DNA of 64,000 bases, taken from NCBI GenBank assembly GCA_963664225.1, contig OY760937.1:1216001-1280000 (forward strand). Reading direction: 5' to 3'. Positions 5,229 through 64,000 of this stretch are shown here, in pieces. The notes below the pieces were generated by a model. It had not been told where the DNA came from and did not search any database. It saw only the letters and a program-made list of their open reading frames with translations. The stretch is from Verrucomicrobiia bacterium. Lineage in GTDB: Bacteria; Verrucomicrobiota; Verrucomicrobiia; Limisphaerales; UBA1319. The position numbers and the translations under genes are program-made. Positions within the stretch are counted from its first letter, which is position 1; every line of letters begins with the position of its first letter.

Positions 5229-5240
5229 ACAACATTGTTT

Positions 5241-17171: not shown

Positions 17172-17184
17172 CCAGAAAGTGCGG

Positions 17185-17212: not shown

Positions 17213-17312
17213 GAATTGTCAGCGTCCGGTTGAAGAATTCTTTTTTAACGCCGGACGCTTTTCTTTTGCAAATGGCCATGACATTGGTTGGGCGTCTTCG
17301 TATAATTTGGAC

Positions 17313-18203: not shown

Positions 18204-18208
18204 CCATC

Positions 18209-19525: not shown

Positions 19526-19526
19526 C

Positions 19527-32631: not shown

Positions 32632-32963
32632 TCACGCCCACTGCCGCCACACGTATCTTCGTTGCCCTGGCTCCGATGGACTTGCGCCAGTCCTTTAACG
32701 GGCTGTGTGCCTGGGTCCAGGAGTCCTTGCGTCAGGATCCTCTCTCGGGCCATCTTTTTTTGTTCACCAACAAACACCGGAACCGTCTCAAGGCCCTTTA
32801 CTGGGACGGCAGCGGACTTTGGGTCAGCACAAAACGTTTGGAGCGGGGTCGATTTACCTGGCCACAAGGGGAGGGATTGCAGGCAAACTTGCGCGCCGAG
32901 GAACTCAGCGCGTTAGTCAACGGATTGGAGATCCGCGCACGCAAAGACTGGCGGCGAAACTGA
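32628..32963 (+). CDS. tnpB: IS66 Orf2 accessory protein
   Basis: DLRQSFNGL and LYWDGSGLW..KRLERGRF. Confidence 0.92.
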   Translation: MITPTAATRIFVALAPMDLRQSFNGLCAWVQESLRQDPLSGHLFLFTNKHRNRLKALYWDGSGLWVSTKRLERGRFTWPQGEGLQANLRAEELSALVNGLEIRARKDWRRN

Positions 32964-33029
32964 AAGATTCTTAAAATAAATTGCGTATAACTATTGACAT
33001 AATAATTTATATTGTTATGAGTAATAACA

Positions 33030-41175: not shown

Positions 41176-41187
41176 TTTAGCGCGCAT

Positions 41188-45457: not shown

Positions 45458-46564
45458 ATGAAGACCAGATTCCATTTAATTCGGCGCAATCATCGCGGGG
45501 GAACGTTTTATTGCACGGACACCCTCACCGGCCATCGCACCAGCCTTCAAACAAAGGACGAAGCCGAAGCCACGCAAATCGTGCAGGCCAAAAACCAGGC
45601 TTTGCGCCAGCCCATGCTGAATCTCCAGATTGCCAAAGCGTATTTGGCCGGCAGCGATTCAGGCGTCAACACGCGAACCTGGCAGCATGCTTTTGACGCC
45701 ATCATTAAACTCAAAGAGGGTGAAACCAAAGCGCGTTGGATGCGGGCGTCGTGCGAGGAACCCTTTGAATTGATCCGCAACCGGATTGTCATCGAAACGA
45801 AGGCCGAGCATTTTCTCGAGGTTTTGCAGGATGGAACTGTCAGCACCAATGTTCATCTGCGTAAACTGCACAACTTCTGTTTGGATATGAACTGGCTCCC
45901 TTGGCCCATTCTTCCCAGAAAGCAATGGCCACCCGTTCATTACCAGGAAAAGCGGGCCATCCTGGAAGGGGAACACCGGCAAATCATTCAAGCCGAGAAA
46001 AACGTTGAATTGAAAATGTTCTACGAATTGTGCTGGCACCTCGGCGGATCCCAGTCCGACATCGCCACACTCACCGCAGAATGTATCCAATGGGATGATC
46101 GGGTAATCGCTTATCGGCGCAAGAAAACGCACGTGGTATCCATTTTTCATTTTGGAGATGAGGTTGCCGATATCATTCAAGAACTCTCCACCGCAGGACC
46201 ATTATTCCCACGCCTGGCCCTGATGCACGAAAAACACCGCGCCAAAGAGTTTAAACGCCGCTGCAATGGCTTGGGAATCCACGGCGTGACGCTGCATAGC
46301 TACCGGTATGCGTGGGCGGAACGCGCCAAGAATTGCGGCTATCCAGAACGTTTTGCTCAAGAGGCGCTTGGCCATAACAGCAAGGCGGTTCACCGCGCTT
46401 ATGCGCGGAAAGCGCAGGTCCAGTTGCCAGCCCTCGAAGATTACGAAAAAGCCTATGCGAACAAGAACATTATTCCCTTCGACCTGCAGAAGGGAAAGCT
46501 AAACACGAAGACAACCCTGCTGGGCGGAGAAAACGAAAAAACGACAATGGCGGACAATCATTAA
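45458..46564 (+). CDS. Tyrosine recombinase/integrase
   Basis: LHSYR (HxxR), LGH, catalytic Y in HRAY and K in RKKT; adjacent to the tRNA. Confidence 0.88.
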   Translation: MKTRFHLIRRNHRGGTFYCTDTLTGHRTSLQTKDEAEATQIVQAKNQALRQPMLNLQIAKAYLAGSDSGVNTRTWQHAFDAIIKLKEGETKARWMRASCEEPFELIRNRIVIETKAEHFLEVLQDGTVSTNVHLRKLHNFCLDMNWLPWPILPRKQWPPVHYQEKRAILEGEHRQIIQAEKNVELKMFYELCWHLGGSQSDIATLTAECIQWDDRVIAYRRKKTHVVSIFHFGDEVADIIQELSTAGPLFPRLALMHEKHRAKEFKRRCNGLGIHGVTLHSYRYAWAERAKNCGYPERFAQEALGHNSKAVHRAYARKAQVQLPALEDYEKAYANKNIIPFDLQKGKLNTKTTLLGGENEKTTMADNH

Positions 46565-46793
46565 GGATTTGCTCACAATCCACCTGCCACCCATCGACTA
46601 CTCGCTAACCGATTTATTGGCGCTTCTGTTTCTCGGGCCTTTGGCAGGCTCGCTCGGCCTGGGGTCTCAATGACCGATGAAACAACGTTTCGGATTGGTT
46701 GACTAGCCGGTTTGAGTTGCGATAGAACGACTTTACCCACGAAGCAGGCACCGGTTCCATCGAAGAACGGGCCCAATGACAGGGAGGAGGTTC

Positions 46794-49700: not shown

Positions 49701-52070
49701 AAGCGGCTGGGGCTGGCGCAAAAGCCAATGATTACCGTGCCCAACCACATGCTCGGCCAGTTCACGGCCGAATTGCTGGGGCTGTATCCCGGCGCCAATA
49801 TCCTCGTGGCCACCAAGGACGATTTTGAGAAAGAGAAGCGCAAGACATTGATGAGCCGGATTGCCACGGGGAATTGGGACGCGGTCATCGTCACCCATTC
49901 CGGGTTCGAGAAAATCCCTGTCGCGCGGGAAACCCAGGAGGAATTCTTTCAGGAACACTTGCGGGAATTGGCCCTGGCCATCGAACAGCAGCGAAAGGAG
50001 GGCGACTGTCGTATCATCAAGGCCCTCGAACGCGCCAAGAAACAACTGGAGTCCAAGCTGAAGGAATTGGCGGCGAATGAGAAAAAAGACGACGGCCTCA
50101 CGTTCGAGGAATTGGGCGTGGACCGGTTGTTCGTGGACGAGGCCCATTGTTTCAAGAACCTGTTCTATGTCTCGAAGATGACGCGCATCGCCGGGCTGCC
50201 CCAGACGGCGTCGCAGCGCGCCTTTGATATGTTTCTGAAGGCGCAGCATGTGCAGCGAATGAATGGAGGCGGAGGCGTGGTGTTTGCAACAGGAACGCCG
50301 GTGACCAACAGCGTGGCCGAGATGTTCACCATGCAGCGGTTCCTCCAGATGATGACACTGAAGGATCAGAACGTGGCCCATTTCGATTCCTGGGCGGCGA
50401 CCTTCGGCGAGCCGGTGACGGCGATGGAGTTGGCCCCGGACGGTTCCGGTTATCGGTTACACACTCGTTTTGCCCGGTTCATCAACGTGCCGGAATTAAT
50501 GCAGATGTTCCGTCAAGTGGCCGACATTCAAACGCAGGAGATGCTCAAGTTGCCAGTCCCCGAATTGAGGCAGGGAAAACCGGCCGTCATCAGTTCTCCG
50601 TGCTCACCGGAATTGAAAGAGATCGTTCAGTCGCTGGTCGAGCGGGCTGAGGCATTGCGCACCGGCTCAGTTGATCCACGTGATGACAACATGCTTCTGG
50701 TGACCACCGATGGTCGCAAGGCAGCTCTGGACTTGCGATTGCACGACCCATCGCTGCCCGACCATGACAACAGCAAGGTCAACCGGGCGGTGGAGATGAT
50801 TGAACGCATCTGGCGGGAGACAGCGGAAGGCCGTTCCGCGCAATTGGTGTTCTGCGACATGTCCATTCCGACCGGCGGCAAGGGATTTTCAGTCTATGAA
50901 GACATACGGAACAAATTGATTGCGCGGGGTGTGCCGGATAAGGAAATCGCCTTTATCCAGGACCACGATAGCGATGCCGCCAAGCTGATGCTGTTCCGGG
51001 ATGTGCGGGCAGGCAAGGTGCGGATTCTTATCGGTAGCACACAGAAAATGGGCACTGGTGCGAATGTTCAGGAACGCTTGATAGCCTTGCATCACCTCGA
51101 CGCGCCGTGGCGGCCAGCCGATGTCGAGCAACGGGAAGGCCGGATTCTCCGGCAAGGCAACTCGAATCCTGAAATCCAGATCTACCGATACGTTACCGAA
51201 GCCTCGTTCGACGCCTACATGTGGCAAACGCTCGAGACCAAGGCCAAGTTCATTGGCCAGGTGATGACCGGCGAGAGCGATTTGCGTCGCATCGAGGACA
51301 TCGACGGCACCGCCCTGACCTATGCCGAAGTCAAGGCCATCGCGTCGGGCAATCCGCTCGTGATTGAGAAGGCCCGGATTGATGCCGAGGTGGCGCGCCT
51401 CAGCCGATTGCATTGCGAGCACCAGGAAACTCAATTCCGGCTCCGGTCGCGGGTCCGACACCTGACCGATGAGCTTCCGCGTTTGGAAAAACGGTTGGAG
51501 GATGTGGGCCGGGATATTGGGACACGTCAGGACACAAGCGGCGACAAGTTCGTCCTGATGCTGGAAGATCAGGAGATACGGGATCGCGGTATTGGTGGTG
51601 AACTCCTGCTCCGTCGGGCAGAACGGATACGTGGGAGTCGCTCCGAGCGCCTGGTGGGCAGCTTGGCTGGCTTCCAGTTATTCGTTGCCGACAACTTCAT
51701 GCAAGGCCCCGAATTGGTGATCAAAGGGACCACGACCTACACCGCCAAAGTCACTGACACAGCGCTGGGCACCATCCGCTCGCTGGAGCATACGATTCAA
51801 CACCTCGAAGAGGTATCAGCGAACCTGACCCACAACATCCAAGACAACCGGAAACGACTGACGGATCTTCACGTTCAAGCCAACACGCCCTTCGAATACG
51901 CCGAACGCCTGGTATCGCTCCGACGGCGCCAACAAGAGATTGCGGACGAACTGGATTTGACCAAGAACCAAACGCCTGCCCAACTGGAGACAACGGAAGG
52001 CGATCTTGAAAACGCCATTCCTAGCTGTTGCCCACCTGCTCGGTCATTGCTAGAGCAACGGAAGGACTGA
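46794..52070 (+). CDS. N6-adenine DNA methylase / SNF2 helicase fusion (DarB-like)
   Basis: RYVGWGG, EPALGLGHF, NIPF, AHVVGAGKT, DEAH, ATGTP and QREGR; strong RBS GGAGGAGG before ATG 46794. Confidence 0.9.
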   Translation: MPAAGRVIKNDLQLDLFTFDRRRPAYDQATDATRLNGRETLETISAENGRGTGSQGPTPGHAAGGGGKDRGGPGPDSTAVDSVGPVAPASARPGLGNGPPTLHLTAARVIANGHDSVGHQEGHNAGSDETTTSMPVSPSADEEQQGGAALSFQKPPVFEPEPLRNQTNYRITVGDRLGSGSLKQKCHDNLAAIELLKRLEAEARPPTIEEKRGMVRYVGWGGLPQVFDVWNDEWKEQHERLERLLEPDELESARASTLNAHYTAPQVIRAMYAALQRFGFTQGRILEPALGLGHFIGLMPDEMHSRSLITGIEIDSLTARLAKALYPDADIRHQPFEETKLPDGFYDVAISNIPFGNYKPFDPRFKGWNFLIHDYFFAAALNKIRPGGLILFITSHGTLDKQDAALRNYLFHQADLLGAIRLPNDAFKRNANTEVTTDIVMLRKRLPGETPKGPEWMQTVEITNSVGETISINEYFAAHPEMLLGEMRLEGRMYGRGEATLVGNKRDLAEQLAEAIALLPRDIFRREIKTVENPSLSHTFPAPEHVKPNAYTIVNGQIAIRDEDRLRLLTGLSSQVAARIRGLIRVRDAMRRCLLAQVKEADECEVASSREQLNHAYDYFVARFGPISERANTSAFRGDPDQPLLLSLENYNEETRRATKAAIFRERTIQKKRPLAVVNSPEEALLVTLNERGCVDLDYLVGLLHRRPTEFLPDLRGTIFLNPQTNRWETEDAYLSGNVRAKLETAEAALLLDEQFKINVEALKAVQPTDLSAVEIDARMGSTWIPPEDIERFAEELLGETSIHVSHAPQLGLWVVRGGWSAKISIANTTEWGTEQRSALDLIEDALNLRTPTVYEHDPHTDRDVVDVAATEAARDKQEKIKERFKEWIWQDDARRERLARKYNDEFNHTRLRSFNGNHLTLPGASPAIDLRSHQKAAVWRILQTPNCLLAHVVGAGKTYVMVAAAMELKRLGLAQKPMITVPNHMLGQFTAELLGLYPGANILVATKDDFEKEKRKTLMSRIATGNWDAVIVTHSGFEKIPVARETQEEFFQEHLRELALAIEQQRKEGDCRIIKALERAKKQLESKLKELAANEKKDDGLTFEELGVDRLFVDEAHCFKNLFYVSKMTRIAGLPQTASQRAFDMFLKAQHVQRMNGGGGVVFATGTPVTNSVAEMFTMQRFLQMMTLKDQNVAHFDSWAATFGEPVTAMELAPDGSGYRLHTRFARFINVPELMQMFRQVADIQTQEMLKLPVPELRQGKPAVISSPCSPELKEIVQSLVERAEALRTGSVDPRDDNMLLVTTDGRKAALDLRLHDPSLPDHDNSKVNRAVEMIERIWRETAEGRSAQLVFCDMSIPTGGKGFSVYEDIRNKLIARGVPDKEIAFIQDHDSDAAKLMLFRDVRAGKVRILIGSTQKMGTGANVQERLIALHHLDAPWRPADVEQREGRILRQGNSNPEIQIYRYVTEASFDAYMWQTLETKAKFIGQVMTGESDLRRIEDIDGTALTYAEVKAIASGNPLVIEKARIDAEVARLSRLHCEHQETQFRLRSRVRHLTDELPRLEKRLEDVGRDIGTRQDTSGDKFVLMLEDQEIRDRGIGGELLLRRAERIRGSRSERLVGSLAGFQLFVADNFMQGPELVIKGTTTYTAKVTDTALGTIRSLEHTIQHLEEVSANLTHNIQDNRKRLTDLHVQANTPFEYAERLVSLRRRQQEIADELDLTKNQTPAQLETTEGDLENAIPSCCPPARSLLEQRKD
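46870..47124 (+). CDS. Small helical protein, TnpV-like, nested in the +1 frame of the helicase gene
   Basis: Own RBS GAAGGAG; 'LGLMAEKHWRQYLPKMVAELEAKGQL...AWEMVRQHYI' resembles TnpV-type proteins. Confidence 0.6.
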   Translation: MIKPLTQLGLMAEKHWRQYLPKMVAELEAKGQLQAMLLEAEEKTEADLDRIRRQLIQWGQSPLQAHVQAWEMVRQHYILLPPES

Positions 52071-52293
52071 TCGGCAGTGAAATCGAGTCCTGTTTTGTCG
52101 AAGCCCGTTACGCTGGTTTCGGTCAGGATCAGGAACCCACCGACCTCACCATTGCCCAAGTCCTGACCGATTTTGTCCCGCTGTCCAAAATGATGGCGGA
52201 GCAGATTGGGGGGTGAGGAACTGGGCGAAAGGGAGGGCCAGGTATGCGACTTCATCGGTTTCAGAATCGAAGCTGAGGAGGTTGGTGGTGTAG
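52040..52293 (+). pseudogene. C-terminal remnant of a Ycf46-like AAA+ ATPase, frameshifted
   Basis: ARATEGLIGSEIE...VPLSKMMAEQIGG, then a frameshift near 52213 continuing RNWAKGRARYAT to TAG 52293; no Walker motifs upstream. Confidence 0.65.
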
Positions 52294-52397
52294 TTCGAAA
52301 GGGGAATGTGGCATCGGGCTGGATTCCTCTTTTTTTAGCTGTCTGCCTGTCCTGCGCAGAAAGTTCCACAAACTAATCGGTCAGGGAAACAGCGACT

Positions 52398-52895
52398 TCA
52401 GGTTTGCGGCGTTAAAGCTGAGGAAATGAATTGGTTGAACGCATCCACATCGCTCGCTGGGAGTTCAGCCAAGGAACCGGACAACTTCCCATCAGAGGGG
52501 TGCTGTAAAAAGTATCCACCAATCCCGGAAGCAGTGATATAAGCGGCATGCTGTGGGGTAATCGGCGTTGTTCGTTTGGTGTTTGGCCAATCTCCATGAT
52601 CGAGGAATGAACTGGATATTGCAATCGACCCGCTGACAAGCATTGATCCGAATGGGTGTTCATCGACCTCCGAACCATCAATGCGACGAAAATTATAGAG
52701 AATGACGGGGCTGTTCCCTGCACTTCCTGAGATGATGCGGGTGGCTGAATCAAACTTGGCTGCCAGACTTCCTGGGATAAACGAAGGGAAGTCGGCTGGG
52801 CCGACAACAAGGAACCCATCACCATCCACCAAGACGCTACCAAGCTCGACTGATTCAGTTGGGTCTAATCGGAATGGATGCACGAAGTTTGGCAT
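52398..52895 (-). CDS. Hypothetical protein, last gene of the Argonaute operon
   Basis: Open frame starting at ATG 52895 (or TTG 52910 overlapping the nuclease stop); no recognised motif. Confidence 0.55.
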   Translation of the reverse strand: MPNFVHPFRLDPTESVELGSVLVDGDGFLVVGPADFPSFIPGSLAAKFDSATRIISGSAGNSPVILYNFRRIDGSEVDEHPFGSMLVSGSIAISSSFLDHGDWPNTKRTTPITPQHAAYITASGIGGYFLQHPSDGKLSGSLAELPASDVDAFNQFISSALTPQT

Positions 52896-52906
52896 GGCAA
52901 GGAATA

Positions 52907-54145
52907 TCAAAGCCCTCTTGGGCCAACAATCACAATAATCCGCATCCGTTCCGTCGTTTCGGACAGATCCTTCTCCAGTGCGGTGGGTTTGTCACAATAC
53001 CTTTCCGGGTCGTAAACGAAGCAAATCAGGGTGCGGCAGTGGGGATGCGATTTGTATCTTTCCTTGTCTTCGGCCAACTGGGAGGTGAGCTCGCGTTGGC
53101 CAAGGTTCTTGCGAGTCATCTTCACCTCGACAACTACCTCTTCAGGCATGAGCAGGAAGTCCATTCGCGCTGAACTTCCTCCGTGGCTGGGAGTGGTTTC
53201 CTCAGGCCGCACGTCTTCAAAATGGAGTTGCAGCAGTGCGTGCATGAGGTCCTGCACGTCATACTCATCCTTGATCTGGATTCCTTTGCGTTTGTCGTGC
53301 CGCTTCTGCAACTGTTTTGCGAACAAGGGAAACCGCCTGCAAATGGATTCTACCAGTGACGCTGCATCCTGCGTGCTTCTGGACAGAATCCAGGTATCGG
53401 CAATGGCGGAGCAGAGCCTTGATCGGATTGCCTGCCTCAGCGAGCAGCAGAGAACGGACGCCTCCGCCAAGTCATGAACGTTTAGCTCAGATTCCAAGCT
53501 ACTCAAAAGCAGAGCCTTGTCCACGGGTGCAAAGGCGTGGTCGGTGAAAGTCGCAAACGCCTTGGAAGCGCTTCCGACCCACCGTGCTAGGGCCAACTCC
53601 TGAGCCCGGAGGCCTGCCCATTGGGATGGTGTATTGACAGTTTTCTGGACGCCAAGGATGTCGCCAGCGAACTGATGCAACGTTGATTCCCAGAAGCTGA
53701 CGCCGCTTGATTTTGCCAACTCTGCCAAAGCACCGATCAGCCACTCCACCTGTTGATCTTCGTGGTGTTTGCAGCAGGACAATCCAAGTGCAAGGCCAAC
53801 CACTTCGAGCGGGCGATATGCAAACGACGAACGGTCCACAGGGAACAATTCGCGCTTCTGGAGCCGCTGCAAGGCTTTCAGCCACGCAGCCTCGTCTGGC
53901 AGAGCCGACCGCCACAGCCCAGCCGCCATCGCGCTACCTGCAGCGGCGAGAATTGGGGCTTCGTCAAGGCGCTTCGCGTCCAGTGAAATCTTGGCCTCTG
54001 TCAGAAATGAAGGCACTTCACCGATTTTCCTGTAAATGACACCCGCGAATGCCATCGCTGGCGAAAAAGACCCCACGTTACGCCGTTGGAACTCATCCAG
54101 GCGTGCCAACTGAGCCGCGAGGCTGTGGTGCAAGACGTCGCTCAT
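52907..54145 (-). CDS. pAgo-associated nuclease with C-terminal PD-(D/E)XK REase (DpnII/MboI-like) domain
   Basis: DEYDVQDL..LL...F.DVRPEE, RMDFL and VEVK; ATGA overlap with the pAgo stop. Confidence 0.82.
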   Translation of the reverse strand: MSDVLHHSLAAQLARLDEFQRRNVGSFSPAMAFAGVIYRKIGEVPSFLTEAKISLDAKRLDEAPILAAAGSAMAAGLWRSALPDEAAWLKALQRLQKRELFPVDRSSFAYRPLEVVGLALGLSCCKHHEDQQVEWLIGALAELAKSSGVSFWESTLHQFAGDILGVQKTVNTPSQWAGLRAQELALARWVGSASKAFATFTDHAFAPVDKALLLSSLESELNVHDLAEASVLCCSLRQAIRSRLCSAIADTWILSRSTQDAASLVESICRRFPLFAKQLQKRHDKRKGIQIKDEYDVQDLMHALLQLHFEDVRPEETTPSHGGSSARMDFLLMPEEVVVEVKMTRKNLGQRELTSQLAEDKERYKSHPHCRTLICFVYDPERYCDKPTALEKDLSETTERMRIIVIVGPRGL

Positions 54146-56433
54146 AGGAACCATTTGCTTGCGCGCAACTTGATGTTCAGCATCGCTGGTGACCAATCAG
54201 GGACGGTTCGCATCCGACTCAACAGGCCGGCGATCAGCTCGGAATAGTAGATGGTGACGGGCAGCTTTGCCGGCAGAGTGGAACGCCACGACAGAGAGGT
54301 GAACTTCAACACCTGCTCAGCCAGCGAAGCCAGGTCACGATAACTGGATTCTGGATGAATACGCACCAGCAAGGGCACCGGCAGCGGTGAAACCGGGCGC
54401 TTGATCAATTCAGGTCCGTTGGTGCAGAGCAGCCGCGTGAAAGCTCCAAGCTGCGCGATGACACCACGCTGCGGCACGAAAACGGCCTTCCTCATTTCAC
54501 CGTGGTTCCTCATCGGTATGCCTGGCTGATCGCAATCAAACAGTCGGAACGGATGATCCTGCGTGACAGTCAGGAACGCGAACTCCACGTTCTGTTCATC
54601 TCCAACGGTTGCGACGCAGTCCTTCATGATGCTCGCAAGCTCCAGCTTCTTGAGCGGCTTAAAGGAATGCACGACCACGCGAACGGTGTCCCCCGGCTGC
54701 CAACCGTTTCGTTTCTTGATCTCTTTCAGGATCTCCACAGTCGAACGCTGAAGCACCTCCGGATAGTCGTCGTATCCACACTCCGATGACAGGTTCGAGA
54801 GCAGATAGTTTCCATCACCCCTGAAAACGGTGGTGATGCCGATGAAACGCTTGCGAGCCTCGAACCTGCTTTCTCGCATCTCGCAGGAACCGAGACCGAG
54901 CACCAACTCGTCCGCGATGGTCAGGTCGTGGTCCACTGTCCAAGGGATGCCGTTCAGCTTCGCGTAAAGGGCCACTGAGATGTTTTGCAGGTTATACTGG
55001 AGACTGGCTTCGGGCTGGCTGATGGTAAACACTCGAACATCCTGCACCGGGATTCCGGCCATCAGCAGCACTGCCTTGGAGTGAAGATATGGGTTTTGCG
55101 GGTCTGGAAGTCTGGCGTGGTCGTTCAAAATCGTCACGATGGCAGCATCGAACTGCGCGTCCCGACTCAGGAACTCGCTGATCGTTCTGCGGTATATTGC
55201 GGCTGGACTATCGTTTTGTCGGGGGAAGAGCGGTATGCGGCAGGGCACGAACTGGGGATTCACCAGGCAGAAAGATTTTGCAAAACCACCACCGTAGCGG
55301 CTATTCTGTAATCCTGTGATACCATCCCGGAAATACTTGAGGAAGCGCTCTGCCGGTCCTTGCACCGAATCCGGAAACACGAAGAGAATCCGCGGCGACT
55401 TCTTGGCCAAGGTGTCGCGGCTGAACGGGCCGAAACTCTCGAGACCAGGCCAGGCATATTTGTTCCTCTTGCTACGCGCTGAATCGAAGCAATAGTCTAC
55501 CACTGGAGCCTGAACAACAGTCTTGTAGTTGCCCACGTTCTGCATTCGGATGCGTTCACCGATTGAACACTGGATATCCGGACACAAAGTCAGCGGAGAT
55601 GCCTTTCGCAAATACTCACCCATGCGCCCAACCCGTTCGTCGAGGGCATCGCCAACCAGCACCAGTCCCTCTTGCTCTTGGCGTTCCTTTTCGAAGTCAT
55701 CGTATGCCTTGCCAAGCAACTGCTTGAGGCAATGTGCGAACGAAGCCCTCGACCCCTCCAGAAGAACATCGTCCACGAAAATGTCAGTCACTTTGTCGTG
55801 GGCTTCAGAGAGCGTGATTCTCTGCCCGATCACTTCCTTGATGCGGCCAACCAGCCTGCGGCCTTTTGGATCTGGAACCCGTCGCACGACATAAAGCCCT
55901 GCCACATCAATCCCAGACGTCTTGAGTTCGTCCAAGGGTGCGAGAATCTGCCAGTTCGTGGCGATGTCCACGAAAAGTCCGACCCGCAGCTCTCCCTCGC
56001 GCAATTCAATCATCCTGGCGTCCAACTCGAAAGTAAGGGAAATCTTGAACTTGCTCACAACGGGCGGGAGCCGTGTCAGCCGGGTTAAGATCGCTGCCAC
56101 AATTTCTTCTTTCTGACCACGAAACTTGAATGGCTTGCGCCGAAACGCTTCATACTGTGGGAACTTCTCCGGTAAAACGTCCGTCAACCGTCGCGCCAAC
56201 AGGGAGAGATGATCGGCGACTTTCAGCGTCTGTGCATGCCCGAATGGTTTTGACGGCGTTGCGCATTTCGGCAGTCCGTATGCAACCCCATCGTGCCAGT
56301 GGATAAACCATTCATCACCCAGTGCCTCCCGAGTAGGTTCCAACTGCTGGTTGTCGGGCATCGGGCTGACATAGCCGGTGAAGTCCTCCTTCGTGAAGGA
56401 CACTGAAAAGCCGTTGAAGAACAGGTTGCTCAT
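54142..56433 (-). CDS. Long-B prokaryotic Argonaute (RsAgo-like), catalytically inactive
   Basis: MID Y..SK..Q..N..YAK; PIWI PWTVDHD..DELVLGLG, RFIGITTVF.GDG.YLL and FTSLSWRSTLP..PVTIYYS; C-terminal WFL; first catalytic Asp absent. Confidence 0.93.
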   Translation of the reverse strand: MSNLFFNGFSVSFTKEDFTGYVSPMPDNQQLEPTREALGDEWFIHWHDGVAYGLPKCATPSKPFGHAQTLKVADHLSLLARRLTDVLPEKFPQYEAFRRKPFKFRGQKEEIVAAILTRLTRLPPVVSKFKISLTFELDARMIELREGELRVGLFVDIATNWQILAPLDELKTSGIDVAGLYVVRRVPDPKGRRLVGRIKEVIGQRITLSEAHDKVTDIFVDDVLLEGSRASFAHCLKQLLGKAYDDFEKERQEQEGLVLVGDALDERVGRMGEYLRKASPLTLCPDIQCSIGERIRMQNVGNYKTVVQAPVVDYCFDSARSKRNKYAWPGLESFGPFSRDTLAKKSPRILFVFPDSVQGPAERFLKYFRDGITGLQNSRYGGGFAKSFCLVNPQFVPCRIPLFPRQNDSPAAIYRRTISEFLSRDAQFDAAIVTILNDHARLPDPQNPYLHSKAVLLMAGIPVQDVRVFTISQPEASLQYNLQNISVALYAKLNGIPWTVDHDLTIADELVLGLGSCEMRESRFEARKRFIGITTVFRGDGNYLLSNLSSECGYDDYPEVLQRSTVEILKEIKKRNGWQPGDTVRVVVHSFKPLKKLELASIMKDCVATVGDEQNVEFAFLTVTQDHPFRLFDCDQPGIPMRNHGEMRKAVFVPQRGVIAQLGAFTRLLCTNGPELIKRPVSPLPVPLLVRIHPESSYRDLASLAEQVLKFTSLSWRSTLPAKLPVTIYYSELIAGLLSRMRTVPDWSPAMLNIKLRASKWFL

Positions 56434-56439
56434 TGATGA

Positions 56440-57408
56440 TTAGGCAGCAGGTGGACTTGTGACAACATTACCGTATATTTCCGGCAGCGCTTTCATGACC
56501 TCTGGAAAGACAGCCCCGGGAGGAAGCAAGAGCATGGCCGGTGCAATCGCGTTTAGCAAATCACGTCTACCAACATTTCTAAACAGCAGGGCGGCAGACA
56601 TGAGCGCCGGAGCCAGTCCCCGCATCATTTCGGCCAGTTGTTCATTCGTCTTACAAGTTCCAACCCACCATGCAAGGCCCCCGTTGTAGCCATCCGGGTT
56701 CGTGTCACCACAAATGAAACCGCCGCGAATTGTGAGGTTGAACCACCAGAAGAACGGCGTCTGCATTTGCGCATAACGAGCGCTTTGCGCCCCGAGGTCC
56801 AGAACTTTGCGCAACGACACCTTTTTCTTGTTCAGCGCTTTCTCATCATCGAGCTCATCAACAGATATCGTGGTAATCGGAAAGCCGAGTTCCACCCGAA
56901 ATCGCTTTCTGCCACCTGCAGCGGGGTCAACTCCCAGATCTTTTGGCTGATCTACGCCGCAAACTGAGCCCGACTTTCTTAGGTTGGGCACAAGTTCAAT
57001 AATCCCGCATTCAGCCTTGTGTTGGTGGTAAACGAACCAAGCCGGAAGTGTTGAATAGAGCGACAGCGTCCTTTTGTTCTTGTTCACGACAGCCAACATA
57101 AGCGGAAGGCCTAAACTAAAGAACCAGTCAAAATGAGCTGTGTAGGTCGAGTCGCCTTTTTGAGAGTCTGGCGGGGCAAGAACAATCTTGGGCTTTGACG
57201 CGGATTTCACAGACACCAGGTAGTGAGAAGTGAAGCTGAGCAGGTCCGCCTTGGAGTTATAATCCGACAGGTTGCAGACCAGATCAAAACCGATGTCCTC
57301 CTACCGCGGGACTTGCGTAACCAATCCGAGACCAGAAAGGATATATACCGCGAGGTATTCGCTTCGGTCTCCTTGCCTAAAATCAGGGTGTCGTGTGCCA
57401 GTTGACAT
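56440..57408 (-). pseudogene. PD-(D/E)XK-like nuclease gene interrupted by an in-frame TAG at codon 36
   Basis: ATG 57408 gives MSTGTRHPDFRQGDRSEYLAVYILSGLGLVTQVPR*EDIGFDLVC...YLVSVKS, in frame with the 56440..57216 ORF; TAG at 57303-57301. Confidence 0.7.
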
Positions 57409-57417
57409 AAAAGCTGT

Positions 57418-59379
57418 TCAAATATTGTCCCTCAGAAACCGCCGCTCCTTCTCTGTTGAAGAAAACGGCGGATGCACCAGCCAGGGCATGCCTTTCAGGT
57501 GCTCTGGCGGCGGTTCAGTGGTGGTGATAATGTATTGGATTGGCGCTTCTGCCTCGCTGAACTCCTCGTCCTTGGGAATGTCGAAGATGCGCCGGTAAAT
57601 GGAGGCGGTCAGGTCAGCTTCACGGGGGCTGTCGTGAATCAGGAAGCCAGGGTGCTGTTCGATTTGGCGGGCTGATGAGAGCAAGGCTGCGAGGTCGAAA
57701 ATCAGAACCTTTAGCGTCGTCAATGCCGTGCTTGTCAGGTCGCTATAATCGAGTTCCAGTTTCACATCGTCGGCAAGGAAACGCACCGTGCCGCGATTCT
57801 CCGATTGCAGGACTCGTCCAGCGAGCAGGCTGAACACCTCTGAGAAATCCGACTGGCGGGCCGTCGCCTTTTGCCGCAGACTTTCCTGGTAATCCGTTGA
57901 CTTCCGCTGCTCGCCTTGAAGTCGCTCGGATTTCTTTTGCTCGGCCTCCAGTTCTTCGGTGAGGGTCAAAAGGTCCGAAGTGACTTCATGCTTGCGCCGC
58001 GCAAGGGAGAGGTCCCCCTCTAACGCTTCGATTCTTTCCTGATGCTTCTGGCGGGCAGTTGCAATTTGCTTTTCGAGCCGTTGTTTCTCTTTCACACTTT
58101 CGGCCTGTTCACGTTTTAATCGACCGACTTGGTCCTGAAGGCTAGACACCCGCGCCTGTAATACGCCCTGGGTGGACTGAAGTTCAGCCAGGACATGCTC
58201 GGCAAAGCGATTGGGATGCAGCGCCTCCGCGAGCTTGCATCCGTGCGCGATTGCCAGTTCAAGCGGGGCGCTGCACTGGTCAGCCCGCAATGGCATCTGA
58301 GCTAGCTGTTGACGATATTCCTCCTGAGTGATGCGTTTTTCATGGAAATCCAAGGTAAGCGTCGCCTTCTTTCCATCATTCTCTGCGTCCTCCAGTTTCT
58401 TAGCCAAATCTGCCAGTTGTGTGATTTTCTTGTCTCTTTGAACTGGCAGCAAATCGCCCGCGCCATCCCGTTGCCGCATTTCGCCAATCAAGTTAAGAAT
58501 CCGGGTTTCCTCCTTTTCAAGCCCGGCCTTCTCCACCGTCAACGTGCTCTCCATGATCGTGGCATCTGGCGCATTCATCACGCTGCGGTATTTCTTCTCC
58601 GCCCGCCCACGTACGTAAGTTAGCTTGGGAATTAGCGTGTCACAGTCTCCCTTGTCTCGAAGAAGTCGCATATGTTCCCGCCGCGCCTCAAGCTCTCCAG
58701 GTTGGGTTAATCCCAGCACCGTGCGAACCAGAAGCGTGCGGTCTGAGCTGTGAATGTCGCCTAGAGACGACGCGCCCCCGTAACTGGAACGCCAGTCGAG
58801 CACATGGTCGTAGCGCGCTTCCTGGTCACGGCTCAACCACGCGAGCAGGTGCGCCCAATCCACTTGCTTGCCAGAACCCGGATAGACTTCAATTGGCAAC
58901 GGTTGGATGAACGCCTTCTGCAACGCGCGCACGAAATCGGCGTACGCCTGCCGATCGACACTCGCGTCAAACAACTTCTCGAATGTCACTCCGCGTGCGC
59001 TCCAATGCGGGCCGCCCGTGATGCCGACAAATCGGCCCACCAGCCACGCCTCGCCATCGAGATGCACCTCACCGGCCACCCACGCGTTGGGGAATTTGTT
59101 CCGAAACGCATCGCGAAACGTGTCGTTCCCGAAGTTGGAATCTCCCAGCAAGTAGCGGAGGAATCGGCAGAACGTCGTTTTCCCAGCCGCATGTCCGCCC
59201 GCACCTTGTTCGGATGGTTCAGCCCAGAGGATATTCAAGCCCTGTCGCAGAGTGATCCGCCGTTGGAGCGCATCCGGCTTCCACTCCCGATACACTGCGA
59301 GTTCCTTCACCCACAGCCGCGGTTCGCGGCGTGTTGCAGTTGGCAGCGTGGAGGCAAAAGGAAGGTCTGGTGTTTTCAT
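57418..59379 (-). CDS. SMC/Rad50-like ABC ATPase (ABC-three-component/Lamassu LmuB-like)
   Basis: GLNILWA..GHAAGKTT Walker A, long coiled coil with a central Cys pair, FLIHDSP Walker B/D-loop and QYIITT. Confidence 0.8.
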   Translation of the reverse strand: MKTPDLPFASTLPTATRREPRLWVKELAVYREWKPDALQRRITLRQGLNILWAEPSEQGAGGHAAGKTTFCRFLRYLLGDSNFGNDTFRDAFRNKFPNAWVAGEVHLDGEAWLVGRFVGITGGPHWSARGVTFEKLFDASVDRQAYADFVRALQKAFIQPLPIEVYPGSGKQVDWAHLLAWLSRDQEARYDHVLDWRSSYGGASSLGDIHSSDRTLLVRTVLGLTQPGELEARREHMRLLRDKGDCDTLIPKLTYVRGRAEKKYRSVMNAPDATIMESTLTVEKAGLEKEETRILNLIGEMRQRDGAGDLLPVQRDKKITQLADLAKKLEDAENDGKKATLTLDFHEKRITQEEYRQQLAQMPLRADQCSAPLELAIAHGCKLAEALHPNRFAEHVLAELQSTQGVLQARVSSLQDQVGRLKREQAESVKEKQRLEKQIATARQKHQERIEALEGDLSLARRKHEVTSDLLTLTEELEAEQKKSERLQGEQRKSTDYQESLRQKATARQSDFSEVFSLLAGRVLQSENRGTVRFLADDVKLELDYSDLTSTALTTLKVLIFDLAALLSSARQIEQHPGFLIHDSPREADLTASIYRRIFDIPKDEEFSEAEAPIQYIITTTEPPPEHLKGMPWLVHPPFSSTEKERRFLRDNI

Positions 59380-59385
59380 AGGGGT

Positions 59386-62300
59386 TTATGCGGCTGCCCA
59401 GAGTTTGAGGACTTCTTCCGGGACTGCTTCCAGCCAAGGCTTCGTTACGGTTCCTGCCGCGGCTGCATGGCTTAAGGCCATCTTGGCATCAACCAGCGTC
59501 CAGTCGAAGGTGATGGCTGTCCATTGAAGCCCTTTGAAAATCAAATGGCCGTTTTCCTCCGGGCGAATGTTCAGGGCGTGACGCATGACGATCAAATCGT
59601 GTAGCGCGGCCTGGAACGCCTTCGGGTCAACCAGGGACGATGGGAATTGTGACCGCCAAAGGCCGAACACTGAAGAGGCGCCTGTCGGAAGCGAGACAGC
59701 AGACATGGGGGGCGCGGCCAGGAACGTCAGGGCTTCCAAAAGCTCGGTATAGCCCAGTCTGTCACCAGCCATTTGGACCAGCGCCGGGATGAGCGTGACG
59801 TAAAACTCCGCTGGAGTGTTGATATGCGGGCGGCGTCTGGATGGTAGAACAAAATCGAAACCCGCAACCACTTCCTGCAAGCTGGGTGGATGGATTGCTT
59901 TGGGAATGGGAACTTGCTTTGCCGGATGACAGCAGAGTGGGTCTGCCGGGGGCGTATCCAGGCGGGTTTGGTAGGGGGTGCTGGTGCGGATAGATTCGGC
60001 GAGGGCGTCGTAAATTTCCAGGATGGTGTCTTTGGTGCGGTAGGTGCCGCATTTGGCCTCGTCCTTGCGTTTAACGATGGGGAAGGTGTCCATGATATAG
60101 GCCACGGCATCGCGAGGCGTGGGGAATGCTTGAGTCAGCGCGGCGGGGTTTTTGCGCCATTCTTCTTCTGAACCGAGGTAGAGGTGGAAGAAGGCGGCGT
60201 CCAACTCGCAGCGGAGCATGAAGCGGCGCTCCTCGTCCCAACGGAACGGCGGGCCGGACCAGTCGCAGTCCTGCGCGAACGCCTCCAAGTCCCACGCCGT
60301 GTAGGTCAGCTCCAGAACGCGTGGCAACATCCACTCGTTGAGCCGGCTCACTCCGTGCGCCCAGGGACAGTCGGCTTCATACTGCGGCAGCCCGATTACA
60401 GGCAACTGGCCGAGGTAGTGCCCACGGAGGTGGAGCCCTGCGACTTTCTGGCGCGCAACGTAGTCGAACGGAAGGGAGTTCAGGTTCGCTAGCAGACAAG
60501 CAGTCATGCTCGCGGCCTGTTCGGTCCCAAGCCAGGGCAGAGAGTCGGTTAGAGCAACTCCTGCCAGCATCGCTGCGATAGAGGTCCGCTCGTTTGTTGA
60601 CGAGGTGACGTCCTTTACCGCCAGACACCACCGTGGCACACCTCCACAGCGTTCGGCGACGCTCGCTGAGTTTACCCAGAACATAGGCAATGCCAGTTGC
60701 GCTGCGTCTTCGTGCTGCGACTCGGACAGTGCGACGGGCTGATTTCGCCGGACACGGTTGGTGGGATCGAACCGGATGCTCGCCGCCCGATGGTCATACA
60801 TGCCAACCATCTTTCCCTCGTAGAATGGCAGCCAAACCTCCTGATCCTGCACGTAACGATTTCCGTCCAGGTGGCATCCGGCGGTTTCAAGTTCCTCTGC
60901 CGTGCGATGACCCTTCATTTCGGCGTTCATCATGAACATCAGCATCGGCCTGATTCCCCAAGGGTGATCGCCGTCGCTACTGCCAATGATGGAGCCGACC
61001 TTCTGCATCTGGAGAGTCAAAACGTAATCATGCCGAGAGCGGAACAGTGGTGCGGTTCGGCTCAGCGGGTTCAAGGCACAGACAGCGTGGTGTGACAGCA
61101 GAACGTGGCGCCAAGAATCTGCCAGGTCGGAAGCCGAGTGCGCGAAGAAGACGAAGTCTGTTTCAGCACAGGCACCGTGACCGCCAATTGTGAGGAGGGA
61201 GAATCGGTATCTGCTGTCAACACTTGGGAAGAGACCTAGTCGGTTCTCGAAGTCGAAGAGGCTGACCAATCGCCCTTCGCCATGCAGCGCGGAGAAGTGG
61301 TCTTGGGAGAACGAATCGGAAGCGAAACCGGACGGCAGCACGATTCCAACTCGTCCGGCTGGCCGCACCAGTGTATGCCCTGCTTCAAGGAACAAGCGGT
61401 AGAGGTTCATCCTGCCAGTGGCAGAAAGGGGGAATCCTCCGCTGTGGGCCATGAAGTGCCGTTGTCCATAAGTCACACGGACATACTCTTGATACGATTG
61501 CCACAACGCAGGCTCTGAAGCACGAATTCTGGCCAGCACGGCAGCTTTGTCCTTCGCGCTCTTGACGGACAGGATTTCGGGGAAACTGGCGGCGAAGAAC
61601 TCATTGTCCTTCACCTCCTGCACGTCCCAGGGAGGATTGCCAAGGTTCACGTCGAAGCCGCCTTGCGCGGACACTTCGGGAAAGGCGAGATGCCAGTGGA
61701 AGAATTGGTATTGGTCGGCCAGTCGCTTGGCTTCGGCGAGCAGGCCGTCGGGCAGTGCTCCGCCTGCCACAAAGTCGCGGAGGTGCTGCGTCGTAATGCC
61801 GATGGGGACTTCTAAACTCGCTCGACTGCCCGCTTTGGCTTTCTTGGCTTTCGGGGCTTCTTCCGTGCCGCCGAAAAGGCCGGCTTGCGTTTCCGTGGGG
61901 CCGGAGGGGGCAGGCAACTTGAGATTGGAGATTTGAGACGTCCCACCAAGGAAATGCTTCTTGATGACGAAGGCAGAGCACCAGAGATTCGCCAAATCCC
62001 AGGCTTTCTGAAAATCGAAATTGGACTGCTCGGCTCGGTAGGCGTCCTCTTTGCACTTGATGTCCTCGGGTCGGCTGTCGCCCATTTCATCAATGGCCGC
62101 CGCCGCTTGGTTCATGCGATCCCGGAGGGTGGTGTCCTCGGCAATGAACAGATGGCGCAGTCCCTCGCGTTGCGCGCGGTTCAGTTTCTTGAGACTAGCA
62201 CAGGCTTCCTTGTCGTCGCCCTCGATGGGGTCGAAGGCTTCGTCGGGGAGGCCGACGGAGATGAGTTCCGGAGTCGTGCCGAGGAGGCTGTTGCCGCAGC

Positions 62301-63999
62301 GGATGTGGTGGTCCAGGAAGGAAAGGGGTTTGCCCGGTTCCATGGCTTCGAGCCAAAGGGTGACTTTGCACAGTTCAACGGCCATGGGGTTGATGTCCAC
62401 GCCATATAGACAGTGGCCGATAACGTCGCGCAAGGCGGTCTGGTAGAGCAATGGGGAGGGTTCGCTCTCGCCCTGGGCCATGGCGCGCACGCGGGCAAGG
62501 TGCCGGGCCAGCCGGTGACCCGCGCCGACGAGGAAGTGACCGGAGCCGACGGCTTTGTCGCAGACTTTGATGGCCAGGATGGCTTCTTCCGAGAGTTTCC
62601 ACCGCCGGGGCGTAGGCGAAACGGAATCCCAGGCACGCTTCCGCTCCTCAGTCGTGGCGGTTTTGGATGCTCCGGCGTGTTTGGTGAGGAAGGCGAGGAC
62701 GTAGGTGCGCTTGGCCGCGTCAGTCTGGATTTCCTTTTCGACGGCAGTCCAGTCGGCTTTCGCGAGACGCTCGGCGTCCGCCAGACGTTCGTTGACCACA
62801 GGGTCGAGCGCGGAATCGAGGAGGCATTGAACGAGGCTGTCGGGCGTGTAGTAGGATCCAGAGGTCTTGCGGTCGTTACCGGCGAATTCGGCGAAGGTGA
62901 ACCGCGCTCCGTCGCCGCTGATTTGCGGCGTCAGGGCGAGAAAGCTTTCATACACGCCGCCGAACTCCTCCGAACCGAGATTCTTGTAGTCCACGGGGCG
63001 GAGGATTTTGTCCTTGCGGATGAACGCGAGGTTGCGGAGCGCATCGAGGAAATCAACGTTGGAGAGTTCTGTCCCTGGGGTGCTCAGTCCCGACCCGTTC
63101 AGGAGCGCAGTGGAAGCGGGATTCCAGAGCATGCTGCCAAGCGATGGCAGCGAGAGAGCGCTGCGCGTGGCAGCGAAACGGTCTTCCCCCGAAAGCGCAC
63201 CGACCAGGAGTTGGAATTGACGCCAGAGATCGCCGTGGCGGCTGCCCTTGATGCGGGAGGAGAGTTCGCGGAGACGGCTGGTGCTGTAATGCGCGGCGTA
63301 ACGTTCACGGGCGAGGCGGGCTGGGTCGGATTTGTTCTGCGGGTGCAGAAGGGAGATGCCTTCGAGTTCACGGTCTTCGGCAACGAAGAGGAAGATAAGC
63401 CGATAGACGATGCGCAAAAGCTGACCGTGAAAATCCTTTAGGCTGACAGTGCCGTTGCGGAGGGCCTCGCGCAGATGGCTGTTCCTGGGATGGCTAACAA
63501 AGCCCTGGCCGAGAATTTCAAGCGCCTTTTCAACACCGCCGCGCAAGTCGGTGAGCGCGGCAACGCCTTGTTCAGCGGCTTCCTTGCTCCATGTTTCGAG
63601 CCAGCACGCCTGCGGCGAGCCGCCATCGGGGCGGCCATGTTCGCGCGGCAGGAATCGAGTAGCGTGGGCGATGAGCCAGAGAAGCACGAAGTCGGAATAG
63701 ACTTCGCCGTCGAACATGGCTTCGAGGTCGAATTCCAGGAAGGATTGACGCGAGAGAGCCTGGTTGTCGCGCAGGATGCGGAAAGAAATACCGTTGGAGA
63801 CGATGGCCCAAAGGTGGGCGGAGCTGCGGTTGAGAAATTCCTGAACGAGTCCGTGGGGATTTGATTGAGCTGCGCCGCGAACACCGGCCGCGCGATGGTC
63901 GAGGCTGACGCCACAGCCAACAAGATGAATGGCGGTATTACCGGCAAAGCGGCTGATCGCGTAAGTCTTGCCATCAATGGTCGGACCGGCAGTGGTGGT
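59386..63999 (-). CDS. Type IIG/Eco57I-like N6-adenine methyltransferase-restriction protein (5'-truncated by window edge)
   Basis: GSYYTP, DKAVGSGHF, YGVDIN, GNSL, NPPW and TNERT TRD region; the frame stays open from 63717 to the window end. Confidence 0.88.
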   Translation of the reverse strand, partial: TTTAGPTIDGKTYAISRFAGNTAIHLVGCGVSLDHRAAGVRGAAQSNPHGLVQEFLNRSSAHLWAIVSNGISFRILRDNQALSRQSFLEFDLEAMFDGEVYSDFVLLWLIAHATRFLPREHGRPDGGSPQACWLETWSKEAAEQGVAALTDLRGGVEKALEILGQGFVSHPRNSHLREALRNGTVSLKDFHGQLLRIVYRLIFLFVAEDRELEGISLLHPQNKSDPARLARERYAAHYSTSRLRELSSRIKGSRHGDLWRQFQLLVGALSGEDRFAATRSALSLPSLGSMLWNPASTALLNGSGLSTPGTELSNVDFLDALRNLAFIRKDKILRPVDYKNLGSEEFGGVYESFLALTPQISGDGARFTFAEFAGNDRKTSGSYYTPDSLVQCLLDSALDPVVNERLADAERLAKADWTAVEKEIQTDAAKRTYVLAFLTKHAGASKTATTEERKRAWDSVSPTPRRWKLSEEAILAIKVCDKAVGSGHFLVGAGHRLARHLARVRAMAQGESEPSPLLYQTALRDVIGHCLYGVDINPMAVELCKVTLWLEAMEPGKPLSFLDHHIRCGNSLLGTTPELISVGLPDEAFDPIEGDDKEACASLKKLNRAQREGLRHLFIAEDTTLRDRMNQAAAAIDEMGDSRPEDIKCKEDAYRAEQSNFDFQKAWDLANLWCSAFVIKKHFLGGTSQISNLKLPAPSGPTETQAGLFGGTEEAPKAKKAKAGSRASLEVPIGITTQHLRDFVAGGALPDGLLAEAKRLADQYQFFHWHLAFPEVSAQGGFDVNLGNPPWDVQEVKDNEFFAASFPEILSVKSAKDKAAVLARIRASEPALWQSYQEYVRVTYGQRHFMAHSGGFPLSATGRMNLYRLFLEAGHTLVRPAGRVGIVLPSGFASDSFSQDHFSALHGEGRLVSLFDFENRLGLFPSVDSRYRFSLLTIGGHGACAETDFVFFAHSASDLADSWRHVLLSHHAVCALNPLSRTAPLFRSRHDYVLTLQMQKVGSIIGSSDGDHPWGIRPMLMFMMNAEMKGHRTAEELETAGCHLDGNRYVQDQEVWLPFYEGKMVGMYDHRAASIRFDPTNRVRRNQPVALSESQHEDAAQLALPMFWVNSASVAERCGGVPRWCLAVKDVTSSTNERTSIAAMLAGVALTDSLPWLGTEQAASMTACLLANLNSLPFDYVARQKVAGLHLRGHYLGQLPVIGLPQYEADCPWAHGVSRLNEWMLPRVLELTYTAWDLEAFAQDCDWSGPPFRWDEERRFMLRCELDAAFFHLYLGSEEEWRKNPAALTQAFPTPRDAVAYIMDTFPIVKRKDEAKCGTYRTKDTILEIYDALAESIRTSTPYQTRLDTPPADPLCCHPAKQVPIPKAIHPPSLQEVVAGFDFVLPSRRRPHINTPAEFYVTLIPALVQMAGDRLGYTELLEALTFLAAPPMSAVSLPTGASSVFGLWRSQFPSSLVDPKAFQAALHDLIVMRHALNIRPEENGHLIFKGLQWTAITFDWTLVDAKMALSHAAAAGTVTKPWLEAVPEEVLKLWAAA

Positions 64000-64000
64000 G

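Follow-up and report, generated by a model that had tools for sequence, protein, structure and literature searches.

Several described bacterial defence systems resemble parts of the locus examined here, a run of six co-directional genes at positions 52398 to >64000 (minus strand) of a 64,000-nt stretch from a Verrucomicrobiia bacterium (assembly GCA_963664225.1, contig OY760937.1, positions 1,216,001 to 1,280,000), the whole of which is called the window below. Lamassu consists of the SMC-like ATPase LmuB and the effector LmuA, with or without LmuC, and SPARDA joins a short prokaryotic Argonaute (pAgo) to a DREN-APAZ protein. In PrrC and RloC, an ABC/Rad50-like ATPase beside a restriction-modification (R-M) enzyme is coupled to a suicidal nuclease, the ATPase and the anticodon nuclease being fused and tRNA being the target. 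ARMADA type I, as described in the consulted parts of a preprint, comprises a YprA-like helicase, a BrxHII-like helicase and a PglX-like methylase in this order; the type that was tested, type II, gave direct, non-abortive protection for which the helicases and the methylase were required (Bell et al., 2025; PMC12458937). BPAN, as far as the consulted parts of two reports go, is a two-protein, abortive system in which an RNA-guided pAgo recognizes target DNA and activates a nuclease that causes collateral DNA degradation (Song et al., 2023, PMC10620215; Liu et al., 2026, PMC13535254).

We found that the six genes are most probably the distal half of a co-directional defence array of about 21 kb, carried by an integrative mobile element, in which two independent systems stand head to tail together with a passenger gene. 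The first system would be an ARMADA type I cassette with two additions, an SMC/LmuB-like ATPase and, in the slot that follows, a small nuclease; the second would be a BPAN pair. The genes of the array are as follows, the last two lying upstream of gene 1 and outside the window (positions in locus L002).

59386 to >64000, minus strand: methylase (gene 1), open reading frame (ORF)
57418 to 59379, minus strand: SMC-like ATPase (gene 2), ORF, 653 aa
56440 to 57408, minus strand: gene 3, predicted PD-(D/E)xK nuclease, 322 codons with an in-frame TAG
54142 to 56433, minus strand: pAgo (gene 4), ORF, 763 aa
52907 to 54196, minus strand: restriction endonuclease (REase) of bAgaN type (gene 5), ORF, 429 aa from TTG 54196
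52398 to 52910, minus strand: 170-aa gene (last gene), ORF
L002 1618-4464, co-directional: SNF2/BrxHII-like helicase, 948 aa, by PADLOC and NCBIfam
L002 4461-9965, co-directional: YprA-like helicase, 1834 aa, with DEAD, Helicase_C and MZB

Gene order and separate recurrence of the two modules

A preliminary description of this stretch had reported six co-directional genes with gaps of 6, 9 and 6 nt and a 4-nt overlap, and most of this layout could be confirmed. The methylase stop codon (59386-59388) lies 6 nt from the ATPase start (ATG 59379), the gene-3 stop (56440-56442) lies 6 nt from the pAgo start (ATG 56433), and the REase and 170-aa ORFs overlap by 4 nt (TTGA). The 9-nt gap between the ATPase stop (57418-57420) and the gene-3 start (ATG 57408) exists only if an in-frame TAG in gene 3 is read through; the first start past this codon, GTG 57216 (258-aa ORF), leaves a gap of 201 nt. 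The pAgo and REase ORFs overlap by 55 nt if the REase starts at TTG 54196 (429 aa) and by 4 nt (ATGA, 54142-54145) if it starts at ATG 54145 (412 aa). According to the whole genome, gene 1 starts 341 nt past the window end (window-equivalent 64341), its full product has 1651 aa, and it is preceded by a 276-nt gap; the two co-directional genes upstream of it, encoding the 948-aa and 1834-aa proteins, overlap by 4 nt. The 276-nt gap before gene 1 is room for a promoter. A promoter and terminator scan of 51800-64000 and of the 276-nt gap gave nothing over shuffle expectation, and an Rfam scan of 51800-64000 at gathering thresholds returned no match.

The preliminary description had further proposed that all six genes form one undescribed multi-component system, in which the SMC ATPase would detect restriction or methylase breaks and pass them on to nucleases triggered by the Argonaute. 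The co-directional order with gaps of 6-9 nt or overlaps would fit such a composite system. However, we consider it highly improbable, because its two halves recurred apart from each other. First, a metagenome scan with an alignment of 19 ATPase homologs as query returned 71 loci with flanks of 10 kb; many of these loci are short, and absence counts rest on the subsets stated. Neither the pAgo nor the REase occurred in any of the 71, nor therefore in the subset of 33 that extend 3 kb or more downstream of the ATPase. Second, a pAgo scan of species-representative genomes gave eight loci (49-82% identity), and tblastn with all nine array proteins placed the REase directly after the pAgo in all eight and found the ATPase in none. 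A recurring gene order, proposed earlier as the thing to search for, was therefore obtained for methylase-ATPase (see below) and for pAgo-REase, each recurring alone, and the joint string was seen in neither the 71 nor the 8 loci; this is the basis on which we split the array into two systems and set aside the coupling of the Argonaute to the methylase and ATPase. Two further points are at odds with a six-gene mechanism: gene 3, which would bridge the two halves, is a nonsense pseudogene here, and BPAN works as a two-protein system in the reports cited above, so far as consulted.

The pAgo-REase pair itself has the features of a known BPAN system. By sequence, the pAgo is a long-B Argonaute of RsAgo type (NCBIfam NF052569, 864.7 bits, cut-off 700; PADLOC pAgo_II, 2e-209 over the full length; PDB matches to RsAgo, 5awh, E 4e-213, and EcAgo, 23wq, E 5e-68). 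The adjoining REase is a bAgaN-type, pAgo-associated nuclease with a helical N-terminal domain and a DpnII/MboI-like REase domain (Pfam DpnII-MboI, 5.5e-52; PADLOC Aga_Helical-REase, 2e-69), and its match to EcbAgaN in the PDB (23wq, E 6e-4) covers the nuclease domain only. As in the RsAgo operon and EcBPAN, an RsAgo-family pAgo is followed by such a nuclease with overlapping ORFs. Unlike in those systems, the nuclease here is only distant kin of the solved EcbAgaN, the pair stands 6 nt behind a gene of another system, and an extra 170-aa gene, which was not seen in relatives, follows it. In this second system, a presumably catalytically inactive, RNA-guided long-B Argonaute would recognize invader DNA and activate bAgaN, leading to collateral DNA degradation and abortive infection. 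Against plasmids, the pAgo matched only distant pAgos with at most 35% identity.

The genes that precede the pAgo in its relatives show how readily this cassette changes its neighbours. One locus (L009) is cut inside the pAgo, and upstream context was available for the following seven.

L003: unknown protein of 325 aa, 3-nt gap
L004: unknown protein of 179 aa, 5-nt gap
L005: BrxL of a BREX system, 14-nt gap
L006: unknown protein of 316 aa
L007: BTAD regulator
L008: unknown protein of 260 aa
L010: DarT/ADP-ribosylglycohydrolase pair

None of the unknown proteins in this list resembles gene 3 or another of the list. At the DNA level, the loci become similar to one another just a few bases ahead of the pAgo ATG, and gene 3 stays similar to its homologs up to its last codons and no further; therefore, these joints are cassette boundaries. 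Since the pAgo cassette docks within a few bases (3-14 nt) of unrelated genes elsewhere, the close spacing in the window is not special, and genes packed very tightly in a defence island need not, for that reason alone, belong to one system. The genes of the array may well be co-transcribed, and, with the same good confidence as for the two-system reading as a whole, we take shared transcription to reflect stacking of cassettes rather than a single mechanism. In L005, a metagenome-assembled genome of Limisphaerales, the pAgo-REase pair (within 7938-12295) starts 14 nt after brxL, the last BREX gene, so that BPAN is again stacked behind a methylation-based system.

The methylase cassette and the ATPase behind it

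Gene 1 had been labelled a type IIG R-M enzyme, a label that we find doubtful. Its core matches Pfam Eco57I (8e-18) and N6_Mtase; the best PADLOC model is DrmMI (3.7e-56), followed by REase_MTase_IIG (1e-46), and PglX models match as well. The IIG models align mainly with the methylase core, no Pfam family and no nuclease domain was found in the N-terminal 447 aa, and inspection by eye of the first 200 aa revealed no evident ExK motif. The profile matches thus point to a PglX-like N6-adenine DNA methyltransferase similar to ArmB of ARMADA. The 948-aa helicase matches PADLOC DpdE (7e-243), DrmD (8e-84) and BrxHI (3.4e-55) and NCBIfam RapA (5.5e-33). The 1834-aa protein contains DEAD, Helicase_C and MZB (DUF1998; 3.9e-10) and, at its C-terminus, a weak DUF559 (Vsr-like) match (E 7e-4; 19.9 bits, under the cut-off of 20.6). 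Its best PADLOC match, DruE3 (1.6e-110), is consistent with the placement of the ARMADA YprA nearest to Druantia in the parts of the preprint consulted (PMC12458937).

The order YprA, SNF2, methylase was seen in L002 plus the window as well as in relatives, and, judged from these matches, the two upstream genes and gene 1 are probably an ARMADA type I cassette. Likeness to ARMADA type I extends to a YprA-like protein with MZB/DUF1998 and a weakly matching DUF559/Vsr-like C-terminus, a BrxHII/SNF2-like helicase and a PglX-like methylase in the same order; the difference is that here a fourth gene, for an SMC/LmuB-like DUF2326 ATPase, and usually a fifth, for a small nuclease, follow the methylase. 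DISARM class 1 (DrmA, DrmB with DUF1998 and DrmC with PLD, together with DrmD and DrmMI) does not fit: the string has no PLD gene, DrmA was matched in NCBIfam at E 0.0085 only, and DrmD reached 302.9 bits against a cut-off of 610.

The ATPase encoded by gene 2 (653 aa) has a Walker A motif (GHAAGKT) and a C-terminal FLIHDSPREAD motif. PADLOC LmuB matches residues 284-622 only (1.2e-13; relatives reach 1.4e-19), and Pfam DUF2326 matches under its cut-off (1.7e-5). These matches identify it, at the level of sequence, as a probable SMC/Rad50-like (LmuB-like, DUF2326) ATPase, of which 83 homologs were detected, many of exactly 653 aa. Two cysteines of its central helical region, C369 and C381 (window approximately 58237-58275, minus strand), stand 12 residues apart and were invariant in sets of 19 and 22 aligned ATPases with identity down to 25%; the pair might be a Rad50-like zinc hook or a dimerization apex.

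The ATPase proved to be a frequent follower of large methylases. Among the 37 metagenome loci with at least 3 kb of upstream flank, 30 carried a gene-1-like methylase upstream on the same strand, with a methylase-to-ATPase gap of 10-11 nt in the closest relatives (L013-L015). Pfam revealed a comparable enzyme directly upstream in three more, which is a Type ISP enzyme in L043, a methylase of Eco57I/MmeI type with DUF7008 in L046 and a split set of helicase, methylase and Type_ISP_C in L058; this brings the total with a large methylase or R-M enzyme directly upstream to 33 of 37; no methylase was found upstream of the ATPase in the other four (L022, L031, L032 and L049). YprA, SNF2 and methylase matches in the order of the window occurred in 10 ATPase loci, a count limited by the 10-kb flank. 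Eight plasmid records in PLSDB match the ATPase, and the five annotated ones examined (two from Mesorhizobium and one each from Paraburkholderia, Caballeronia and Agrobacterium) share one layout, in which overlapping ORFs encode a DEAD/DEAH helicase (about 1720 aa), then a helicase (about 850-950 aa), an N6 methylase (about 1440-1616 aa) and finally an 'SMC'/DUF2326 protein, the methylase and ATPase ORFs overlapping by 17 nt. An HNH endonuclease comes next after the ATPase in three of the five, and no effector follows in two. Thus, of the links drawn in the preliminary description, the one between methylase, ATPase and nuclease was borne out, with the methylase upstream in 33 of 37 loci and 5 of 5 plasmid records and a nuclease usually next.

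An alternative reading is that the ATPase and its downstream effector form a self-contained, Lamassu-like two-gene system that inserts beside large methylases with no functional tie to them. The upstream enzyme indeed varies (ARMADA methylases, Type ISP, Eco57I/MmeI-type), with 4 of 37 loci lacking one altogether; the downstream slot varies like Lamassu effectors (HNH, TIR, SIR2, caspase, RES), and the PADLOC LmuB models match the ATPase. Nevertheless, we regard this alternative as unlikely, because a large methylase or R-M enzyme stands immediately upstream on the same strand in most loci, at gaps of 10-11 nt or with a 17-nt overlap, and because two plasmid records have no effector after the ATPase. 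The tight spacing and the effector-less records fit an operon member better than a chance neighbour. Compared with Lamassu, the shared features are an SMC-like ATPase that matches PADLOC LmuB over part of its length and a swappable slot for a toxic effector. In contrast, the effector gene here comes after that of the ATPase, its product shows no resemblance to LmuA (no PADLOC family was matched by gene 3 or by P0090, an intact homolog of it), no LmuC-like gene stands between ATPase and nuclease in the window, and the ATPase is embedded behind a methylase instead of standing alone.

How the first system might work can be sketched on this basis. By analogy with ARMADA type II, the methylase would mark self DNA, and the helicases and nuclease would restrict unmarked DNA. 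We only infer a role of the ATPase in defence: most likely, the ATPase and nuclease would be a Lamassu-like second layer in which the ATPase, on detecting aberrant DNA or a methylase complex that has failed, sets the nuclease free. The ATPase may guard the methylase complex in the manner of PrrC and RloC, which, compared by their general description rather than by sequence, likewise place a Rad50-like ATPase beside an R-M enzyme and are the source of the guard idea, whereas here the ATPase and the nuclease each have a gene of their own and the nucleases have folds of DNA type (HNH, PD-(D/E)xK). Alternatively, the ATPase could help to load the methylase, for which MANTIS (Gao_RL), in the parts of the source consulted, is a precedent of ATPase-dependent methylation. 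MANTIS was rejected as the same system, its ATPases being AAA+, and serves as a precedent only.

More generally, we tentatively suggest, at somewhat less than even chances, that the DUF2326 ATPase, together with an exchangeable small nuclease (HNH, or DREN-like as here), constitutes an undescribed add-on of methylase-based systems, forming a five-gene ARMADA type I and also occurring on Type ISP and IIG/IIL enzymes, in which a guard would fire the nuclease once foreign DNA is encountered by the methylase complex or blocks it. Less likely than this add-on is that on these mobile elements BPAN was deliberately stacked behind the ARMADA-ATPase cassette to share its promoter, so that the two layers would be co-regulated. 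BPAN and ARMADA type I are already in print; a five-gene ARMADA form was not found there. Neither the ATPase nor the following nuclease is mentioned for ARMADA in the main text and supplementary text of the preprint (PMC12458937; one supplement in part, figures excluded), and full-text literature searches on DUF2326, on ARMADA components and on LmuB with methylases yielded no addition of an ATPase or nuclease to ARMADA. The arrangement of methylase, ATPase and nuclease is recurrent; it adds to ARMADA type I and ties SMC ATPases of Lamassu-like kind to immunity based on methylation. Natural, intact versions on plasmids of culturable rhizobia and Burkholderiaceae make it directly testable.

Gene 3 and the slot after the ATPase

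This slot was analyzed in 35 loci, taking co-directional ORFs of at least 150 aa that start -80 to +200 nt from the ATPase end. Clustering by BLAST gave families of 14, 3 and 2 members, a single member of the gene-3 family (L012) and 15 singletons. The largest family contains HNH_2 in all six members tested by Pfam, and four tested members match the PADLOC HNH model at 1e-25 to 1e-28. Other proteins in the slot, from a Pfam run on 26 of the 35 ORFs, include RES, an OLD-type ATPase, TIR, SIR2_2, caspase, GmrSD_N, a SMODS-like protein and an N6_N4 methylase, some of which probably belong to neighbouring systems rather than being partners of the ATPase. By these family assignments, a small nuclease appears usually to fill the slot, and gene 3 fills it in the window and in L012. 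Two more pairs of ATPase and gene 3 are suggested solely by contigs of equal size (P0026/P0106, 44,523 nt; P0027/P0103, 7,832 nt).

In this genome, gene 3 is broken. Reading from ATG 57408, the in-frame TAG at 57301-57303 (minus strand) is codon 36, which is Q in 25 and A in one of the 26 homologs aligned with the window protein, and it stands just before the invariant ED-G-D motif. The same alignment shows no variation at E17, D38, D42 and K66, in keeping with a PD-(D/E)xK arrangement. Judged from this alignment, a CAG-to-TAG change (Q to TAG) appears to have inactivated the gene by truncating its product before catalytic residues, and a restart at GTG 57216 would lose E17, D38 and D42. The 63 other members of the family have mostly about 295-333 aa, whereas gene calling in this genome gave a fragment of 219 aa. 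The TAG was also present in contigs from two sequencing runs of two studies, in which 51695-64000 was covered with no difference, possibly from the same strain and hence not as independent support. Reassignment of TAG was rejected, as TAG ends 4 of the 34 long ORFs in the window. The broken nuclease indicates that the layer formed by ATPase and nuclease is probably disabled in this genome, and the rest of the array looks intact.

An AlphaFold model of an intact family member (pLDDT 88.3, pTM 0.85) gave further information on the fold. The best Foldseek matches were DREN subunits of SPARDA (E 3.4e-4 to 1e-2, 113-147 columns, TMq at most 0.25), followed by Hjc, RecU and I-Ssp6803I; VIA-align gave Z 6.9 for I-Ssp6803I and Z 6.5 for Hjc, values that are only moderate by the notes of that tool. 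On the strength of the model, gene 3 is a predicted PD-(D/E)xK nuclease with a DREN/DUF4365-like fold and a C-terminal helical domain. Its nuclease core is therefore nearest in fold to the DREN subunit of SPARDA, whereas the adjoining Argonaute differs from that of SPARDA in being long-B, full-length and provided with its own bAgaN effector, gene 3 being broken. No APAZ-like region was matched by either Foldseek or VIA-align, the fold match covering the nuclease core only.

Several observations weigh against the separation into two systems. Two of them suggest that gene 3 could be a second, DREN-type effector of the Argonaute module, as DREN-APAZ is in SPARDA, rather than serving the ATPase: its nuclease domain is similar to the DREN effector that accompanies short pAgos in SPARDA, and it adjoins the pAgo at 6 nt in the window, with a 63%-identical homolog, which has Q at codon 36, lying 2.9 kb upstream of the pAgo in L006. 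In addition, most gene-3 homologs appear to lie on contigs that lack this ATPase. Nevertheless, we hold an assignment of gene 3 to the pAgo to be quite improbable. Six of the seven pAgo loci with a visible upstream side have no gene-3 homolog, L006 being the only one of the eight pAgo loci to contain one, and in L006 a CBASS pair and another gene stand between the two. L006 (4486-8207) and L012 (946-3686) share a gene-3 homolog followed by the same CBASS cyclase (91% identical) and a 4TM effector; L006 alone continues past this pair into the 316-aa gene and then the pAgo, and in L012 gene 3 comes directly after the ATPase, with CBASS and not pAgo next. Moreover, the post-ATPase slot is a nuclease in many relatives, the structural match is confined to the nuclease core, and distant homologs of gene 3 occur in contexts with no pAgo. 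The best explanation for the presence of gene 3 and pAgo in both the window and L006 is that the mobile elements are related and their cargo has been shuffled. In L006, gene 3 is closely preceded by a weak 57-residue match to residues 64-120 of the YprA-like protein (E 3e-6), possibly the deletion scar of an ARMADA cassette.

The remaining points on that side concern the array as a whole. No promoter-like or terminator-like site was found between the modules in the scan of 51800-64000, which leaves room for co-transcription, regulatory coupling and read-through into the pAgo from upstream and would also suit the six-gene composite. Furthermore, ARMADA-like genes (25-41% identical to those of the window) lie on both sides of the pAgo pair in L004, with an AbiE pair between. 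Positions 1360-19991 of that locus contain a fragment of an SNF2 gene, an Eco57I-type methylase of 1580 aa, a DUF4143 ATPase, the AbiE pair, the 179-aa gene, pAgo-REase and a YprA-like helicase of 1793 aa that has MZB and MTES_1575/DUF559. It seems that an ARMADA-like set has here been split by further defence cassettes, BPAN among them. Two co-localizations of ARMADA and pAgo in nine loci (the eight relatives and the window) are too few to tell a preference from the clustering of defence islands.

The gene-3 family was found in none of 400 other genomes of the phylum sample, at no locus in viral contigs and in no plasmid, and in 6 of 400 other genomes of the order sample (25-38% identity; two weak partial matches, E ~1e-12), with neither the ATPase nor a pAgo near these homologs.

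The last gene and the mobile element

The 170-aa gene that ends the array belongs to an uncharacterized family of proteins of about 167 aa, with 109 cluster representatives at E<=1e-3 and 16 at E<=1e-10. Its model (pLDDT 85), with conserved R76, D78, H105 and R113, had no PDB fold match at E<=0.001 in Foldseek; no Pfam, PADLOC or NCBIfam family matched the sequence, and a protein atlas gave only sub-0.9 matches to unnamed clusters. The gene was absent from all eight pAgo loci, was found in none of 400 other genomes of the order and had no plasmid match. As part of the two-system reading, and with the same rather high confidence, we consider it an unrelated passenger.

The array is bounded by conjugation and integration genes, namely those for a type IV secretion system coupling protein and RadC and for an integrase, IS66 and a SIR2_2 gene, and a TrwC relaxase lies upstream in L006. 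The window positions of two of these features are as follows.

45458-46564: integrase
32439-34679: IS66 genes

A DNA search of 20 relatives returned a single match, a 74%-identical ATPase fragment in one genome, so that the island is not common to close kin among those searched.

Further genes of note lie in the window. A ParA-like ATPase gene and a SIR2_2-domain gene that follows it after 12 nt (40147-42054, plus strand) may make up one more small pair for defence carried by the element. Convergent with the 170-aa gene, a gene at 46776-52070 (plus strand, ending at 52070) encodes a 1764-aa protein whose methylase-like N-terminal part (PADLOC mad2, 9e-13) is fused to an SNF2/Helicase_C motor. 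At 50000-51700 each sequencing run yielded several variant contigs with 90-99% identity, which suggests paralogous copies or strain variants of the C-terminal part of this protein.

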